From Mobula hypostoma (taxonomy: Eukaryota): a stretch of 64,000 nt of DNA. This document shows, in pieces, positions 30,760 through 46,339 of this stretch. The notes under the pieces are model-generated. The model saw only the letters and a list, made by a program, of their open reading frames with translations. It did no database searches and was not told the origin of the DNA. Location: the NCBI RefSeq assembly GCF_963921235.1, contig NC_086097.1, forward strand, positions 58,220,001 to 58,284,000. The letters are read 5' to 3'. Numbering within the stretch: position 1 is the first letter of the stretch; the number at the start of each line of letters is the position of its first letter. The position numbers and the translations under genes are program-made.

Positions 30760-31765
30760 TATCCATACTGAGTCAGGAGCCTGATGGCTGAAAGGTGATA
30801 ACTCTTCCTGAACCTGGTGGTGTGGGTCCTAAAGGCTGATTTATACTTGCGCGTATTAGCTTACGCCGTAGCCTACATAAGTGGGCTACGCCGTTGTGAG
30901 CATTTATACTTGTGCGTTGGTGTGTCTGTGTCGCTCTGCAATTCACCGCCAAAACGCCAGTTGGCGGTGGGGTTTCTATGCCATTGTGTTGAAACTCAAC
31001 ATGAAGAAACTCAAACTTCAAACAATGGTGACTGAAACTGAAGGAGGATGAATTTTCTGTGCTTGTCCGGCCACTGAGAGACATGGACGAGGAAATGCAT
31101 TTCAAATATTTTCGGATGTCGGCAGGTAGATTTGACGATTTGGTTCATCGTCTCCAATCATTTATTTCACATCAGTGTATGCACAGTATACTCAGAGACT
31201 GGCAATCACCATTTGAGTTTTAGCTTCAGGTGGAAGTCAACAGGCTGTAGCAGGTAGCTACCAACTGGCGTCAAGCACAGGGTCCTCCATAATTTCGGAG
31301 GTCTGTAAAGCTTTATGGAAAGCATTGCAGCCAGAGTTCCTTCCCTGCCCTTCAGTCGCCCAATGGCAAGCTACTGCAGTGTAGGAGGAAATGCGATGCT
31401 ACCAAACAGACCAATCACAGTTGTTGCGGTTTGCATCGCTGCGATGCGTAGTTACATTTTTGGAGAGGTGCCCGTCAGGCTATGGCGTAGGGTACGGTGT
31501 AGGGTACATGGCTGCGCCGTACCTACGGCGTCGATTTGACGCACAAGTATAAATTGGCCTTGAGGCTGCTGTACCTCCTTCCCGATGGCAGCAGTGAAAA
31601 GCGAGCATGTTGGGGGTCCTTGATAATGGATGCTGCTTTCTTGTGGCAGTGCTCCTTGTAGATGGGCTCAGTGGTGGAGAGGACTTTTCCTGTGATGGAG
31701 TGGGCTGTATCCACTGCTTTTTGAAAACTTTTTTGTTCTTGGGCATTGGTGTTTCCACACGTATA
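30760..31765 (-). mobile_element. Rex1-type fragment interrupted by Harbinger copy 2
   Basis: KKAASIIKDPQHARFSLLPSGRRYSSL on 31561-31765 continues into 30760-30830 across the insertion. Confidence 0.75.
30833..31560 (+). mobile_element. Harbinger/PIF non-autonomous derivative (copy 2)
   Basis: TIRs aggctgatttatacttg / caagtataaattggcct; flanks TAA and TGA. Transposase remnant [23 protein letters not shown]...RLAITI*VLASG...[19 protein letters not shown]. Confidence 0.9.
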
Positions 31766-35133: not shown

Positions 35134-35485
35134 TGTGACACTCCATTGGGGGCGGGGGGAACCAGCAGCCCACCCCTGCATTTCTAATGACCAGCACTGT
35201 CTGTGGTTCTTGTGTTAAAATGCTTTTGTGGCATTATGGTGGGAAGTTCCAGTTCATTTATTGTTACATTTTTGTTTTGAGTTATACAGTTATTTGCTTG
35301 TGTGTTTGTGGGTCACCCTAACTGTAATCAGGGTGTGTGATGGTCACCTCCCCTGTCTGTATGAAACTGAGCTGTTCTCCCTCTGGGTCATGGTGCCCGG
35401 TCTGTTTTTGTGTTTATCACAATAAAGCTGTTGTTGTGTTGAACGAGCTTCCTCATATGTCATTATGTACCAAATGCTTGCCACA
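35134..35485 (+). repeat. 5' LTR of outer Gypsy
   Basis: tgtgacactc...tgcttgccaca, contains aataaa; roughly 85% identical by eye to 44335-44684. Confidence 0.92.
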
Positions 35486-36019: not shown

Positions 36020-36235
36020 ATTACTCCAAAAGACTGAGGTTTGGTAAAATACTGAAAGGCTTTTATTCGCTGTACAATACGACCTCCACAGTGAGTGTCT
36101 GCCCCCGGACTGAGGGGGAGGGGCAAGGCGAACACCTTTATACAGGACTCTGTGGGAGGAGCCACAGGGGCAGTCAGCAGAGGGGTGTGTCCAGACAGGT
36201 AACCGAGTTACAACATATATACATGGTTTACCACA
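36020..36235 (-). repeat. 3' LTR of inner Gypsy (distal ~13 bp not matching the 5' LTR)
   Basis: Direct repeat of about 40323-40535; minus strand has TATAAA and AATAAA. Confidence 0.92.
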
Positions 36236-36304
36236 TTCACCCCTCCTTTTTTAAAAAAGAGTCCCGCGGGGTGAAGTGACTGACAATATTTACAAGAAGT
36301 ATAT

Positions 36305-39300
36305 TTACCGGTTAAGTCTATCAGGCGGTTGAGTTCGTCGCTGTGATCTACGGAGCACCGGCGGTGATTGCACCGGCGATGGCGGTTGTGCTGGCTCCGG
36401 CCTGACTTCAGGTGTCAGCACGTTAGGCGTCGGTAATCCCTCGTGCGTGTGCGTCGCGCCCGGTATGGGATTGTCGTGTGGTGTCTGTGTAGGGGTTGGG
36501 GTGTGCAGTGTCTCGTGGGTACATATATCAGTGGGTATGGGGTTAATAGTCACCACGGAGTGTTCAGGGTAGGGGCCCGGTGCCCCTGCGGGTGCCAGGT
36601 CACGGATGGAGACCGTGTCCTCCCGCCCATCAGGTAAAACCACGTAGGCATACTGGGGGTTCGCATGAAGTAAGTGAACCCTCTCGACTATCGGGGAGTA
36701 TTTATTGCTCCTCGCATGTTTCCGGAGCAGCACTGGCCCCGGGGACGTCAGCCAAGATGGTAGGGTGGTTCCAGTGGTTGATTTTCTGGGAAAAGAAAAG
36801 AGCCGCTCATGAGGGGTGGCATTGGTGGCCGTGCATAACAGGGAGCGGATGGAGTGGAGTGCCTCGGGAAGGACCTCCTGCCAGCGGGAGACCGGCAGTC
36901 CCTTTGACCTGAGGGCTAAGAGTGTGGCTTTCCACACTGTGCCATTTTCCTTCTCTACCTGTCCATTCCCCCGGGGATTATAGCTCGTGGTCCTACTGGT
37001 TGCAATACCCCTAGCCAGTAGATATTGGCGCAGCTCGTCACTCATAAATGAGGACCCTCTGTCACTGTGGATATAGCATGGGTATCCGAACAGAGTGAAG
37101 AGCTTGGGCAGGGCTTTTATAACTGACGTGGTAGTGGTGTCGGGGCAGGGGATGGCGAAGGGGAACCGCGAGTACTCGTCAATTACGTTAAGAAAGTACA
37201 TATTGCGGTCGGTGGAGGGAAGGGGGCCCTTAAAGTCAACACTCAGTCGCTCAAAGGGGCGGGTGGCCTTGATGAGTTGTGCCTTTTCGGGTCAGTAGAA
37301 GTGCGGTTTGCACTCTGCGCAGACTTGGCAGTCCCTGGTCATCATCCTGATCTCCTCAAGGGAGTAAGGCAGGTTCCAGGCTTTCACGAAGTGGAAAAGC
37401 CGGATGACTCCCGGGTGGCAAAGATCAACATGTAGGGTGAATAGCCGGTCAATCTGCGTGCTGGCGCACATTCCCCAGGATAGGGCATCGGAGGGCTCGT
37501 TGAGCTTTCCAGGCCTGTACATGATGTCATAGCTGTAGGTGGAGAGTTTGATTCTCCACCTCAGAATTTTATCATTTTTGATTTTGCTCCGCTGCTGATT
37601 ATTAAACATGAATGCGACTGAGCGCTGGTCAGTTAGCAGGGTGAACCTTTTGCCGGCAAGATAGTGCCTCCAGTGCCTTACAGCTTCCACTATGGCCTGG
37701 GCCTCTTTCTCTACCGCAGAGTGCCGAATTTCAGGGCCTTGAAGGGTACGGGAGAAGAACACCACCGGTCTTCCCGCCTGGTTGAGGGTAGCAGCCAGCG
37801 CAAAGTCGGAGGCGTCACTCTCTACTTGGAAGGGAATGGCCTCATCCACCACATGCATTGCTGCTTTGGCAATGTCCCCTTTTATGCGGTTGAAGGCCGC
37901 GTGGGCCTCGGCAGAGAGGGGGAATGTGGTGGACTTGACCAGGGGGCGGGCCTTGTCTGCATAGTTAGAGACCCATTGGGCGTAATATGAAAAGAAGCCC
38001 AGGCACATTTTGAGGGCTCTGAGGGTGTTGGGAAGAGGGAGTTCCAACAGGGGGCGCATACAGTCAGGGTCAGGGCCAATGACTCCATTCTCCATGACAC
38101 ATCCAAGGATAGCAAGTCGGGTGGTCCCAAATACACACTTGTCCTTGTTATTGGTGAGGTTGAAAGATTTGGCCGCTTGGAGAAATTTTTGGAGGTTGTT
38201 GTCGTGATCCTGCTGGTCATGACCGCAGATGGTGATGTTATCCAGATATGGGAACGTGGCCTTCAGTTGGCACTGGTCCACCATCCGGTCCATTGTCCTC
38301 TGGAAGACAGATACACCATTCGTGACACCAAAGGGGACGCGCAGGAATTGATAAAGCCTGCCGTCCGCCTCGAAGGCAGTGTAAGGGCGGTCCTCCCGGC
38401 GGATGGGGAGCTGATGGTAAGCGGATTTTAGGTCTATGGTTGAGTACACCTTGTACTGTGCTACCTGATTGACCATATCCGCGATGTCGGGTAGAGGGTA
38501 CGCGTCGAGCTGCGTGAACCTATTGATGGTCTGGCTATCCTATTACCATCCTATTCTTCTCCCCGTTCCGAACAACCACCACCTGCGCCCTCCAAGGACT
38601 TGTGCTTACCTCAATGACCCCCTCCCTGAGCAGCTGCTGCACCTCCGACTTAATGAAAGCTCTGTCCCCTGCGCTGTACCTCCTGCTTTTAGTTGCCACA
38701 GGTTTACAGTCGGGGGTCAGGTTGGCGAACAGTGGTGGGGGAGGGATCCTGAGGGTGGAGAGGCCACAAGTGGTGTCAGTAGTGTGGCAGTTGGCATGAT
38801 GTTGGGTGGGATGTGCGGGTCGGTGTGTGTGTGTGGTCAGTAGCGGGGTACGTGACATATCTCTACAAAACAGGGGATTTATGACAGTAATTGGCGGGAG
38901 GGGCCCATCATACTTCATTGTCACACTTTTCAGGTGGCTCTGGAAGTCCAACCCCAACAGCACAGGGACACACAGTTGAGGCAAGACCAGTAACTTAAAG
39001 TCCCGATATTCTGCGCCCTGCACCATTAGCGTCGCTATACACCCCCCCCGGATGTCTGTTGTATGCGACCTGGAGGCCATGGTGACCCTCTGACTTACCG
39101 GCCGTATCATGAGTCCACAATGCTGCACCGTGGCCGGGTGGATAAAACTCTCTGTGCTGCCTGTGTCAAACAGGCAGCTTGTCCTGTGCCCCTCCACCAG
39201 GATGTCCATCATTGACCTTGCGAGCTGGTGGGGAGCGCTTTGGTCGAGGGTCACGGAAGCCAGGGTGGGGTCGCTGTCTTGGTCCGATGCAGTGGGGTGG

Positions 39301-40283
39301 CCCGTGAGCACCCGTTGGTCGTAGGCGGTGGGAGGTGGCGCCAACCAAGATGGCCGCCCCTATGTCTCGCACGTGGTGGCGGTGTGCAGGGAAGATGGCA
39401 GCCCCCATGTCTCGCACGTAGTGGCAGTGTGCAGGGAAGATGGCAGCAGGGAAGATGGCGGCCCCCATGTCTCGCACGTAGTGGCAGTGTGCAGGGAAGA
39501 TGGCGACCCCCACGTCTCGCACACGGCGCTGCTCGATCCCGCTCGTGGTTTTGACTTACAGACCTTGGTAAAGTGGCCCTTCTTTCCGCAGCTGGAGCAG
39601 GTAGCTTGTCGGGCCGGGCAGCGTTTCCGGGGGTGCTTCTCCAGTTCGCAGAAGTAGCACTTCGCGGACTCACGACTGGCTGCAGCCGAGGTCGATTCGC
39701 CGGCGGGTTGAGGGGTCTGCAGCGCCCACGAGGCCATCGGGGGATCGCGTGCCTGGAGAGTCTCGGAGTTATGCAGTCCGGCCTCTAACATATCAGCCAG
39801 CTCGATCGCCGAACTTAGGGTAAGATCGGCTTTTTCCAGCAGCCGCTGGCGCACGTACACTGACCTGGTCCCCGTAACGAAGGCGTCTCTCAATAGGAGT
39901 TCTGCATTCTGCGCCGCCGTCAGCTCCTGGCAATTGCAGGCCCGCACGTGCGTCCGTAGGGCCTGGACGAACTCAGCACTCGATTCCCCGGACCGTTGTT
40001 GCCGTGTCGCTAAGCGATGCTGAGCATAGACGCTGTTTATCGGCCGCAGGTATTGTCTTTTGAGTGCGTTCATCGCACCGTCGTAGTTCGGCTGGTCTCT
40101 GATCAGCGAATAGACCCGTGGACTGACCCTGGAGAGTAGAACTCTGCGCTTCACTACGGGGTCGGTCGCTTTAATCTCCTCTAGATACGCTTCGAAGCAG
40201 GCCAGCCAGAGTTCGAAAGCATTTCCAGCATCAGGCATGTGCGGATTGAGGTCTAATTTTTCTGGTCTCAGAGCCTGTTCCAT
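36305..40283 (-). pseudogene. Gypsy gag-pol polyprotein with three visible lesions
   Basis: Gag MEQALRPEKLDLNP... with two knuckles (CYFCELEKHPRKRC, CSSCGKKGHFTKVC); PR LFDTGS; RT IDLKSAYHQ, VPFGVTN, YLDN; RH ESDASD, EKEA, TDQ; IN H..CHPG..CQVC, VDFKGP, HSDRG, GNGQVEK. Lesions: TAG at 39360, frameshift near 38540, TGA at 37292. Confidence 0.93.
39347..39522. repeat. 45-bp coding minisatellite between gag and protease
   Basis: About 4 copies of gtgtgcagggaagatggcggcccccatgtctcgcacgtagtggca, encoding CETWGPPSSLHTATT on the minus strand, plus one 15-bp sub-duplication. Confidence 0.9.
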
Positions 40284-40309
40284 GTTTTAAAACGTACAGC
40301 GAATAAAAT

Positions 40310-40535
40310 TGAAGCACCTGTAATTACTCCAAAAGACTTAGGTTTGGTAAAATACTGAAAGGATTTATTCGCTGTACAATACGATCTCCACAGTGAGTGT
40401 CTGCCCCCGGACTGAGGGGGAGGGGCAAGGCGAACACCGTTATACAGGACTCTGTGGGAGGAGCCACAGGGGCAGTCAGCAGAGGGGCGTGTCCAGACAG
40501 GTAACCCAGTTACAACATATATATGGTTTACCACA
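40310..40535 (-). repeat. 5' LTR of inner Gypsy
   Basis: Minus strand tgtggtaaacc...ggtgcttca (TG...CA); an alternative CA end at 40319 cannot be excluded. Confidence 0.88.
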
Positions 40536-44334: not shown

Positions 44335-44684
44335 TGTGACACTCTGGGGGGTGGGGTCGTGGTCGGCAGCCCACCCCTGTATTTCTAATGACCAATACTG
44401 TTTAGGGTTCTTGTGTTAAAATGCTTTTGTGGGATTATGGTGGGAAGTTCCAGTTCATTTATTGTTCAATTTTAGCTTGGGTTATACAGTTATTAGCCTG
44501 TGTATTTGTGGGTCACTCTAACTGTAAGCGGGGTGTGTGATGGTCAGCTCCTCTGTCTGTCTGAGACTGAGCTGTTCTCTCTCCGGGTCATGGCACCAGT
44601 CTGTTTTTGTGCTTATCAGAATCAAACAGTTGTTGAGTTTAATGAGCTTCCTCGCCTGTCATTATGGACCAAATGCTTGCCACA
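44335..44684 (+). repeat. 3' LTR of outer Gypsy
   Basis: tgtgacactc...tgcttgccaca; flanks ttat (left of element) and atat (right) suggest a mutated 4-bp TSD. Confidence 0.92.
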
Positions 44685-44784
44685 ATATGTTATATGTTAA
44701 CTAAAATAAACTGTATTCAAGTCTGAAGACTTAAGTGATGTGTTCTATAAGAAAGCAGAAGCTTTGAAATTTGCCGATCTCTTA

Positions 44785-45222
44785 AGGCTGATTTATACTT
44801 GCGCGTCAAACGTACGCTGTCGGTATCGCGTACCCTATGCCGAACCCTATGCCATAGGGTGATGTACACCTCCCCAAAAATGTAACTCACGCGTCGTGGC
44901 GACGCAGACCGTAACAACTGTGATTGGTCCACTTGGTAGCATCGTGTTTCCTCCTACGCATTTCTGGTTGCTTTCCTCCGCCATGTCTGTACACCGATGC
45001 GAAATAAATGGTTGGAGACGATGAACCAAATCGTCAAATCTACCTGCCGACATCCGAAAATATTTGAAATGCATTTCCTCCTCCGTCTCTCACAAAGAAA
45101 CTCAACACAGTGGTAGAAACCCCACCACTAACTAGCGTTTTGGTGGTGAATTGCAGAGCAACGCAGACACAACTACACATACTTGCTACGGCGTAGGGCT
45201 ACGCACAAGTATAAATCAGCCT
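44785..45222 (-). mobile_element. Harbinger/PIF non-autonomous derivative (copy 3)
   Basis: TIRs aggctgatttatacttg / caagtataaatcagcct; flanks TTA and TAA; minus strand [26 protein letters not shown]. Confidence 0.9.
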
Positions 45223-46339
45223 TAAGGGAGCATAATATGAAGCTTCAAACCCTTCATCCTCTGCAGCAAAAAAAAATTGCTTAAGCTATATAAAGATGCA
45301 GAACAGACTGGCTACAATTGTGCTGTAAATTGAAAGCTGCCAGTGCAGTCAGCCTCAGCATACGGACACGAATAGCACAACAATCAGACAACAGTGCTGT
45401 GCTAAAATATTTCATCAATTGTGCATGCAGTTACTTTTCCATTAAATTTGTAAACTACATTTAAGTCTGCTGGTTGGGTTATATGAACATTGAACACTGG
45501 AGAGCTGACTGAATTATGAAGGCTCCAGTAATATTTCAAAGGACACATTATGCTATTTTGGTTATGCATTCTCTTCAAGTTGATCAATGTATAAACAAAC
45601 ATTTTGTAACTAATAGTGATTATATACATGGTAATAGTATAAAGGTTAAATTACTATATAAGTAATCCAGAGGCCTGAAATCACAACCCAGAGAAGCAGA
45701 TTAAATCCTCCCACAACAGCTGTGGAACTTAAAGTCAGTTAAATTGTCTGGATTTTAATAAAATCTTGCTAATAGTAATTAATCACAAAACTTTGGGATT
45801 GGAATTGTTAAAATGCATTTGACTCACTAGCACCCTTCAGAGAAACACATGGAAAGCCGGAGGAACACAGTGGGTCAGGCAGCACGTTCCAGATTCCAGT
45901 ATCTGCATTCCCTTGTGTCACATTTCAGAAAAATATCCGTCACCCTTACCGACTCAAATATGTGACTCCAGACATATCAATGTTGTTGGCTCTTAAAAGC
46001 TCTTTGCATTTTCCATGATAGAGTTGTTCCTCAGATGGTACATATGGAAACTAATTCTCTTCCGACACTTTATCTGTTGTCTGATACTGCAGTTGTGCAA
46101 ATTGATTCAGAACAACCCTGACAAGCTGAAAACGGAGTACCACATGAGGTGTCGTCGGTCATCAGAAGCAACAAAAGTGTATACCACCATTATCTGTATC
46201 CTCATGACCTGTTTCAGAGTTAAAAAAGAAAAATCTCCTGATATTGAAATAGCAGTTAACCAAGAATGATATCAAGTTGCCCTGGTTAATGGACATTATA
46301 AGTAAAAACTTCAAGTAGTCTTTGAAGTGATAACTTGCA

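Follow-up and report, generated by a model that had tools for sequence, protein, structure and literature searches.

Organization of the element

The 64,000-nucleotide stretch of Mobula hypostoma DNA analyzed here (the window) carries on its minus strand, from coordinate 40535 to 36020, a single Ty3/Gypsy element with its coding regions in the order gag, protease (PR), reverse transcriptase (RT), RNase H (RH) and integrase (IN) (Table 1). The assignment to Ty3/Gypsy is based on the presence of gag-PR-RT-RH-IN between direct long terminal repeats (LTRs), a polypurine tract (PPT) and target duplication, with the Ty3 RT as top PDB match. This copy is defective, containing two stops, one frame change and a 3' LTR that is 13 nt short at its end, and its gag is 88-89% identical to Mobula birostris proteins. 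A Pfam chromodomain was searched for at the integrase C-terminus of the window copy and none was found up to E = 1, so that it is not a Tf1/sushi element. Tandem 45/15-nt repeats are present at the gag C-terminus ahead of the protease (39330-39522), and interspersed repeats flank the element (35134-35485 and 44335-44684; 30828-31565 and 44778-45229), some of them MITE-like units with 27-29-nt terminal inverted repeats.

Table 1. Coordinates of the element's features in the window.
Feature	Position	Strand	Basis
5' LTR, 226 nt, TG...CA	40310..40535	-	sequence, repeat search, junction comparison
TATA-like box, predicted; TATAAC here, TATAAAG at 36142 in the 3' LTR	40438..40444	-	
Inr-like TCAGTCC; +1 predicted at 40413, 36 nt upstream of the partner	40409..40415	-	
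Partner segment in R with AATAAA at its end; putative 3' end of the self-primer	40364..40377	-	
Small U5-end hairpin spanning the LTR end; covaries in the family, damaged in the window copy	40307..40325	-	
Tract at the primer-binding position, 1 nt past the CA of the LTR	40294..40308	-	
gag-like ORF with CCHC-type zinc-knuckle motif; premature stop at its end	39360..40283	-	
Aspartic protease and RT N-terminus; reading frame shifts near 38540	38538..39359	-	
Reverse transcriptase, RNase H, integrase zinc finger; premature stop at its end	37292..38539	-	
Integrase core and C-terminus; chromodomain match absent	36305..37291	-	
Polypurine tract and 2-nt AA preceding the 3' LTR	36236..36252	-	
3' LTR without its last 13 nt; window copy without target duplication	36020..36235	-	
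3' LTR copy of the partner, 15/15 complementary to the tract; rival primer source	36061..36075	-	

The 5' LTR ends in ...GGTGCTTCA and is followed by a single A (40309), the tract TTTTATTCGCTGTAC, a further 10 nt and the gag ATG at 40283, which is the layout that the original prediction had described. As it had also claimed, the LTR end of the window copy is not followed by TGG and there is thus no primer-binding site (PBS) of the TGG type. The placing of the LTR end agrees with the 3' LTR junctions, in that 26 of 30 3' LTR loci reach GGTGCTTCA and then diverge into host DNA (of the other four, the window's own is 13 nt short and three showed no end), and with the 5-bp target duplications found in all three of the paired 5'/3' ends. 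An alternative LTR end that would expose a TGG PBS is ruled out by these same junctions and duplications.

An inverted-repeat search recovered the complementarity that had been reported between the tract and the LTR. Positions 40294-40307 are the exact complement of the partner segment in the 5' LTR (14/14), the whole tract is complementary to the copy of the partner in the 3' LTR (15/15), and the LTR segment ends in the AATAAA signal that it was said to include. Among 1000 dinucleotide shuffles of the 226-nt LTR none gave a complement of at least 14, the best being 7. RNA folding places the tract-partner helix in the minimum-energy structure, with folding z values in the window copy of -4.1 for 100 nt but only -1.4 for 144 nt from the predicted transcription start, and of -4.2 and -2.4 in two other copies. 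A search of Rfam gave no match at the gathering score.

The TATA-like and Inr-like motifs lie 31 nt apart in both LTRs (40444/40413 and 36142/36111) and put the A of the predicted Inr 36 nt upstream of the partner, in good agreement with the start proposed originally at about 35 nt before it. The start prediction is clean in ray subfamily A only; subfamily B has AATAAAG at the TATA position, and other families have weaker start candidates 26-41 nt upstream of the partner, or none. There is no clear promoter in the short LTRs of L132 and L146, and because of this the partner could be the true 5' end in some families. Contig runs presumed to be RNA revealed neither a start nor a poly(A) junction, a result that is uninformative.

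Covariation among copies in the ray genome

The 3.48 Gb ray genome yielded 1920 first-look candidates and 714 exact LTR-tract junctions, with none for a control pattern, and the family is a high-copy Ty3/Gypsy in this genome. Gag queries from catshark and another relative recovered only this same family in the genome, and the gag alignment is too variable to serve as a search query. We fetched 155 loci, from which 136 distinct copies were parsed and three were not; two copies, one of them the window copy, were dropped for register shifts, leaving 134 that were scored.

Several pairs of the helix occur in alternative forms among these 134 copies. Pair 11 is A:T in 100 and T:A in 29, and pair 8 is G:C in 91, T:A in 18, T:C in two and G:A in two, with most of the remaining pair-8 states having the look of CpG decay. 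The first 14 pairs are perfect in 65 copies and contain no more than one non-pair in 120. Pair 15 is G:C in 71 and T:A in 31 but is a mismatched G:A in 25, so that the needed core is 14 bp, and the pairing stops sharply at 14-16 bp, with pair 17 formed in merely two copies. The hairpin at the end of U5, which spans the LTR end, covaries too, with one pair A:T in 101 copies and T:A in 26. The copies are related and this covariation therefore reflects a few events rather than hundreds. The tract and the LTR segment change together between ray subfamilies in a compensatory manner, as the original prediction had proposed to look for. The longest match between the tract and any of 23 distinct tRNAs (57 calls, three isotypes only) is 4-5 nt; moreover, because the tract varies with the LTR between subfamilies of one host, it cannot follow a fixed host RNA. 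The genome also contains a dense tandem cluster of tRNA genes at G000:C90:4.02-4.33 Mb.

In a sample chosen for discordance, the two LTRs of single insertions often differ at subfamily-diagnostic sites (L270, L273, L275 and L282), which suggests either intermolecular plus-strand transfer or later gene conversion. Dating by LTR divergence would consequently overestimate the ages of such insertions.

Fold-back insertions

Searching with the tract extended by the next LTR-complementary bases showed that 47 of the 714 junctions (6.6%) are aberrant, the other 667 being without extension. None of the 47 continues into gag, and BLAST comparison finds in 45 an inverted LTR arm of at least 30 nt that starts at AATAAAA. 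Both ends were found in 22, where the arm stops at the LTR start, and these palindromes have target duplications that are exact 5-bp repeats in 15, contain one mismatch in four and are missing in three. The other 25 comprise eight with arms reaching PPT bases (six of which go on internally), five without a left start and 12 without a full arm. These loci are independent insertions made by integrase, and since fold-back products have been integrated, the tract and its partner must pair during reverse transcription. The self-priming reading put forward for this locus is thus supported by both compensatory changes and fold-back products, from which we infer the priming itself.

Two loci, L351 and L353, have the entire internal region inverted behind the left LTR, with an arm that stops inside the tract, as expected for a template RNA from which R-U5 had already been removed. 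In L351 (G000:C5:35234500-35240500) the LTRs are direct and the 5-bp target duplication is exact. Comparison of arms with the left LTR in 21 A-type pairs revealed 21 differences at inherited U3 variants, so many arms were copied from a second molecule; a pure DNA hairpin fold-back as the sole origin of the palindromes is disfavoured by these differences. At two non-CpG sites in R there are no arm/left-LTR differences, and as a means of mapping the U3/R border the contrast between U3 and R gives only a trend (p = 0.16), with the 16 ordinary LTR pairs available for comparison having been picked for discordance and being no fair control.

Some arms jump back to internal sequence, after approximately 20, 40, 51, 52, approximately 181, 309 and 337 nt, and none of them ends between 53 and 175 nt. 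The 51- and 52-nt arms switch by microhomology at the predicted +1 into two different sites. It is suggestive only that they mark the cap site, as these are two events, a G-run follows and pausing is possible. L326 was left out of the short-arm class because it reaches the LTR start around an inserted repeat, and L304, L307, L332 and L345 were not counted, as they may be later deletions. At L361 the inverted arm is interrupted, about 57-160 nt past the LTR end, by a short unrelated repeat that is presumably SINE-like.

Distant members of the clade

Homologs of the RT-RNase H region at 48-61% identity are present in cnidarians, spiders, a fluke, nematodes and a mollusc. Scanning GTDB genomes recovered 17 loci, all on contigs of eukaryotic contaminants: six clade members in which the 5' end is readable, six loci that lack a 5' end and five that belong to other clades. 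All six readable members, at 48-66% RT identity, contain a perfect complement between tract and LTR (13, 14, 14, 10, 14 and 14 bp). The last letters of the partner are ATTAAA in L133, matched by TTTAAT, and AATAAA in the other members, and the duplex starts 1 nt past the CA in all six families scored. Outside the hexamer the letters of partner and tract vary among distant families, and because pairing is kept in all six members while these letters differ, a fixed host primer is excluded. The original prediction had named loss of the complementarity in related families as telling against it, and ray subfamilies and distant families alike keep the pairing. Shuffling gave none in 1000 in each of six cases (the window LTR, ray subfamily B and four distant families), and a TGG PBS is present in all three outgroup elements, none of which has a complement of at least 8 bp. 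We conclude that the complementarity between tract and LTR is real, conserved and functional.

Many of 16 weaker gag matches have TGG sites, and two have 10-12-bp inverted repeats with the LTR end undefined. Upstream of a decayed gag at L161 (G001:C141) lies an inverted repeat of 12 bp that has no AATAAA at the end of its partner; with the LTR end undefined, this may be an exception or a chance occurrence.

The self-pairing elements constitute one branch of the tree (100/100), within which they belong to several lineages. Cnidarian proteins adjoin two of these, and one sequence, L146, fills just 21% of the columns. When TGG-PBS elements are added, in rows labelled by PBS only and with no named reference sequences, the clade sits on a long separate branch and the deep forks are unresolved. 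RT searches of viral_contigs returned no loci, and a metagenome scan with RT returned one 46-residue fragment. Eukaryotic contigs with LTR retrotransposons occur in bacterial MAG records of GTDB (L132:1-4023, L133:1-3949, L135-L137 and L146), where they represent contamination from the host; of these, L132 and L133 are circular assemblies with a single LTR, and L132 has a 9-bp U5 stem.

Initiation of reverse transcription

The right end of an LTR is set by the position of the primer's 3' end, and the primer of these elements must therefore pair with the tract. That tract and LTR vary together in a single host points to the element's RNA as that primer, and the element very probably self-primes in a Tf1-like manner, with its own RNA. 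As to which part of the RNA is used, we lean towards a capped 5' fragment cut just after AAUAAA(A). Transcription would start at TCAGT, some 36 nt upstream of the partner; the RNA would fold its capped 5' portion onto the tract, and a cut after AAUAAA(A) would yield the 3' OH for minus-strand DNA. By analogy with Tf1 the cut could be made by the element's own RNase H, perhaps helped by the covarying U5 hairpin. A strong-stop DNA of 24-55 nt would then jump by means of only the small portion of R that separates AAUAAA from the poly(A) site, while the primer would stay attached and plus-strand DNA would copy about 15 nt of it, sometimes up to the cap. Such a cap-long copy could mis-anneal to the 3' R of another RNA and give rise to inverted-LTR products.

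Priming from a 5' fragment would account for the local hairpin, for the U5 stem beside it and for the arms that end at +1. Against it are the small amount of R left for strand transfer, with 23-54 nt to the LTR end (23 in L146), and the 36-nt 5' tail, which should hinder the second transfer, as well as the 667 of 714 junctions that have no extension. The same helix may also hide the 5' poly(A) signal, a plausible second role that would explain why AAUAAA is always inside it.

Priming could instead come from the other end of the RNA, a possibility that we regard as doubtful but not slight: the 3' R copy of the partner would pair with the tract, in a circular RNA or a dimer, and the 3' end of the genomic RNA, trimmed to AAUAAA(A), would prime, leaving the whole 5' R for strand transfer. 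In every family the end of the partner coincides with the poly(A) hexamer, close to the RNA 3' end; many arms copy U3, which is present only at the 3' end of the RNA, six cross the PPT and enter the internal region, and two end within the tract, which is where the start of an already used template RNA would lie. The long arms of L351 and L353, through U3 and the whole internal region, suit priming from either end equally. The arm differences in U3, with none at the two R sites, would also fit a 3' origin, but that contrast is not significant, plus-strand mis-annealing to a second RNA yields the same long arms, the predicted fold is a local 5' hairpin, and two short arms end at the predicted cap site. 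If 3'-end priming were true of this widespread animal Gypsy clade, one helix would be the primer site, a mask for the 5' poly(A) signal and an RNA-circularisation element, and it would be a third way to start LTR reverse transcription, with inverted-LTR insertions as its genomic record. We consider it improbable that the geometry is simply that of Tf1, with transcription starting at or near the first base of the partner and the first 14-16 nt acting as primer. This would account for the sharp end of the pairing at 14-16 bp and for most junctions being without extension, and in L132 an AT-rich motif lies 38 nt before the partner, with just 59 nt of LTR upstream of the partner. However, ray subfamily A has canonical TATA-Inr spacing 36 nt further upstream, two arms end at its Inr, and the poly(A) hexamer would lie no more than 15 nt from the cap.

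Masking of the 5' poly(A) signal, as by the poly(A) hairpin of HIV-1, might be all that the helix described here does, with an unknown host RNA or protein as primer. All families, the one with the ATTAAA variant among them, have the hexamer within the helix, and the host tRNA screen covered three isotypes; yet the primer has to pair at a tract that, in a single host, varies along with the LTR, the register of 1 nt past the CA is constant, and L135 and L137 keep a second, unpaired AATAAA downstream, all of which makes masking alone very unlikely. Least probable of all, to the point of being almost negligible, is that the complement has no selected function and arises as a side effect when template switching homogenises a quasi-palindrome. 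Switching certainly occurs in the ray family, as the fold-back products prove, and the single copies L275 and L266 have concordance with the 5' LTR only, but position, register and hexamer are the same across at least five lineages of the clade, the complement is absent from tRNA-primed elements, and the element would be left without a primer.

The capped 5' fragment remains the primer that we favor, and the mechanism probably works like Tf1 self-priming in an element that is outside Tf1/sushi by the chromodomain test. A literature search found no description of self-priming in this clade, nor of a primer that ends at a poly(A) signal, with subscription journals and Repbase Reports outside that search, and it is possible, if rather unlikely, that a prior description exists somewhere. 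In the portion of the literature covered, Tf1 is the only element for which self-priming is shown; beyond it, the mechanism has been assigned to the related chromoviruses and to a small number of plant lineages. An animal clade outside the chromoviruses that is abundant in the genome of a vertebrate and has its primer tied to the poly(A) signal would be an independent solution, and it would link the choice of transcript end to the start of reverse transcription. The fold-back junctions (∼7%) provide a sequence-level readout of primer length and strand transfer, and the mechanism can therefore be tested from genomes together with RNA-end data. LTR finders that rely on a PBS will miss or mislabel the clade.

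Relationship to other LTR retrotransposons

The closest parallels are Tf1/Tf2 of Schizosaccharomyces pombe, Tj1, Tosmo and the Tf1/sushi chromoviruses, which are also Ty3/Gypsy elements without a tRNA PBS (as described in PMC4600332 and PMC5341516). They share with the ray element a PBS complementary to the element's own LTR and an adjacent U5 duplex; in Tf1 the flanking duplexes are described as adjoining the PBS (bioRxiv 2022.12.06.519325), and the primer as being made by an RNase H cut at its edge (PMC7175516). In Tf1/sushi, as these accounts have it, the first 11 nt of the RNA act as primer and the integrase contains a chromodomain, whereas the ray clade has a partner of 13-16 nt that is predicted to lie 26-41 nt inside R and ends at the poly(A) hexamer. 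The predicted start 36 nt upstream and the two arms ending there argue against a primer made of the first bases. By-eye inspection finds the third duplex of the Tf1 'pretzel' not to be consistent in the clade; the U5-end hairpin covaries.

Self-priming has also been predicted for plant Tcn1 chromoviruses and for the TAR/Houba Copia elements, from an LTR complement of at least 10 bp located 0-5 nt past the LTR, but these are plant lineages, and the account cited gives no link to the poly(A) signal (PMC6317226). Fungal GalEa, with its Conserved Hairpin Site, and Dictyostelium Skipper, with a polypyrimidine tract, likewise have no tRNA PBS; for both it is reported that the LTR contains no complement (PMC5445492, PMC5006619), whereas the ray element is defined by one. 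The Mag lineage of Gypsy resembles the ray element in being animal Ty3/Gypsy, with LTRs that are short and target duplications mostly of 5 bp, but is described as using tRNA-Leu or tRNA-Ser PBSs (PMC3286476), while the ray element has no TGG PBS. The ray clade is not nested among the TGG-PBS elements sampled and occupies a long branch of its own.
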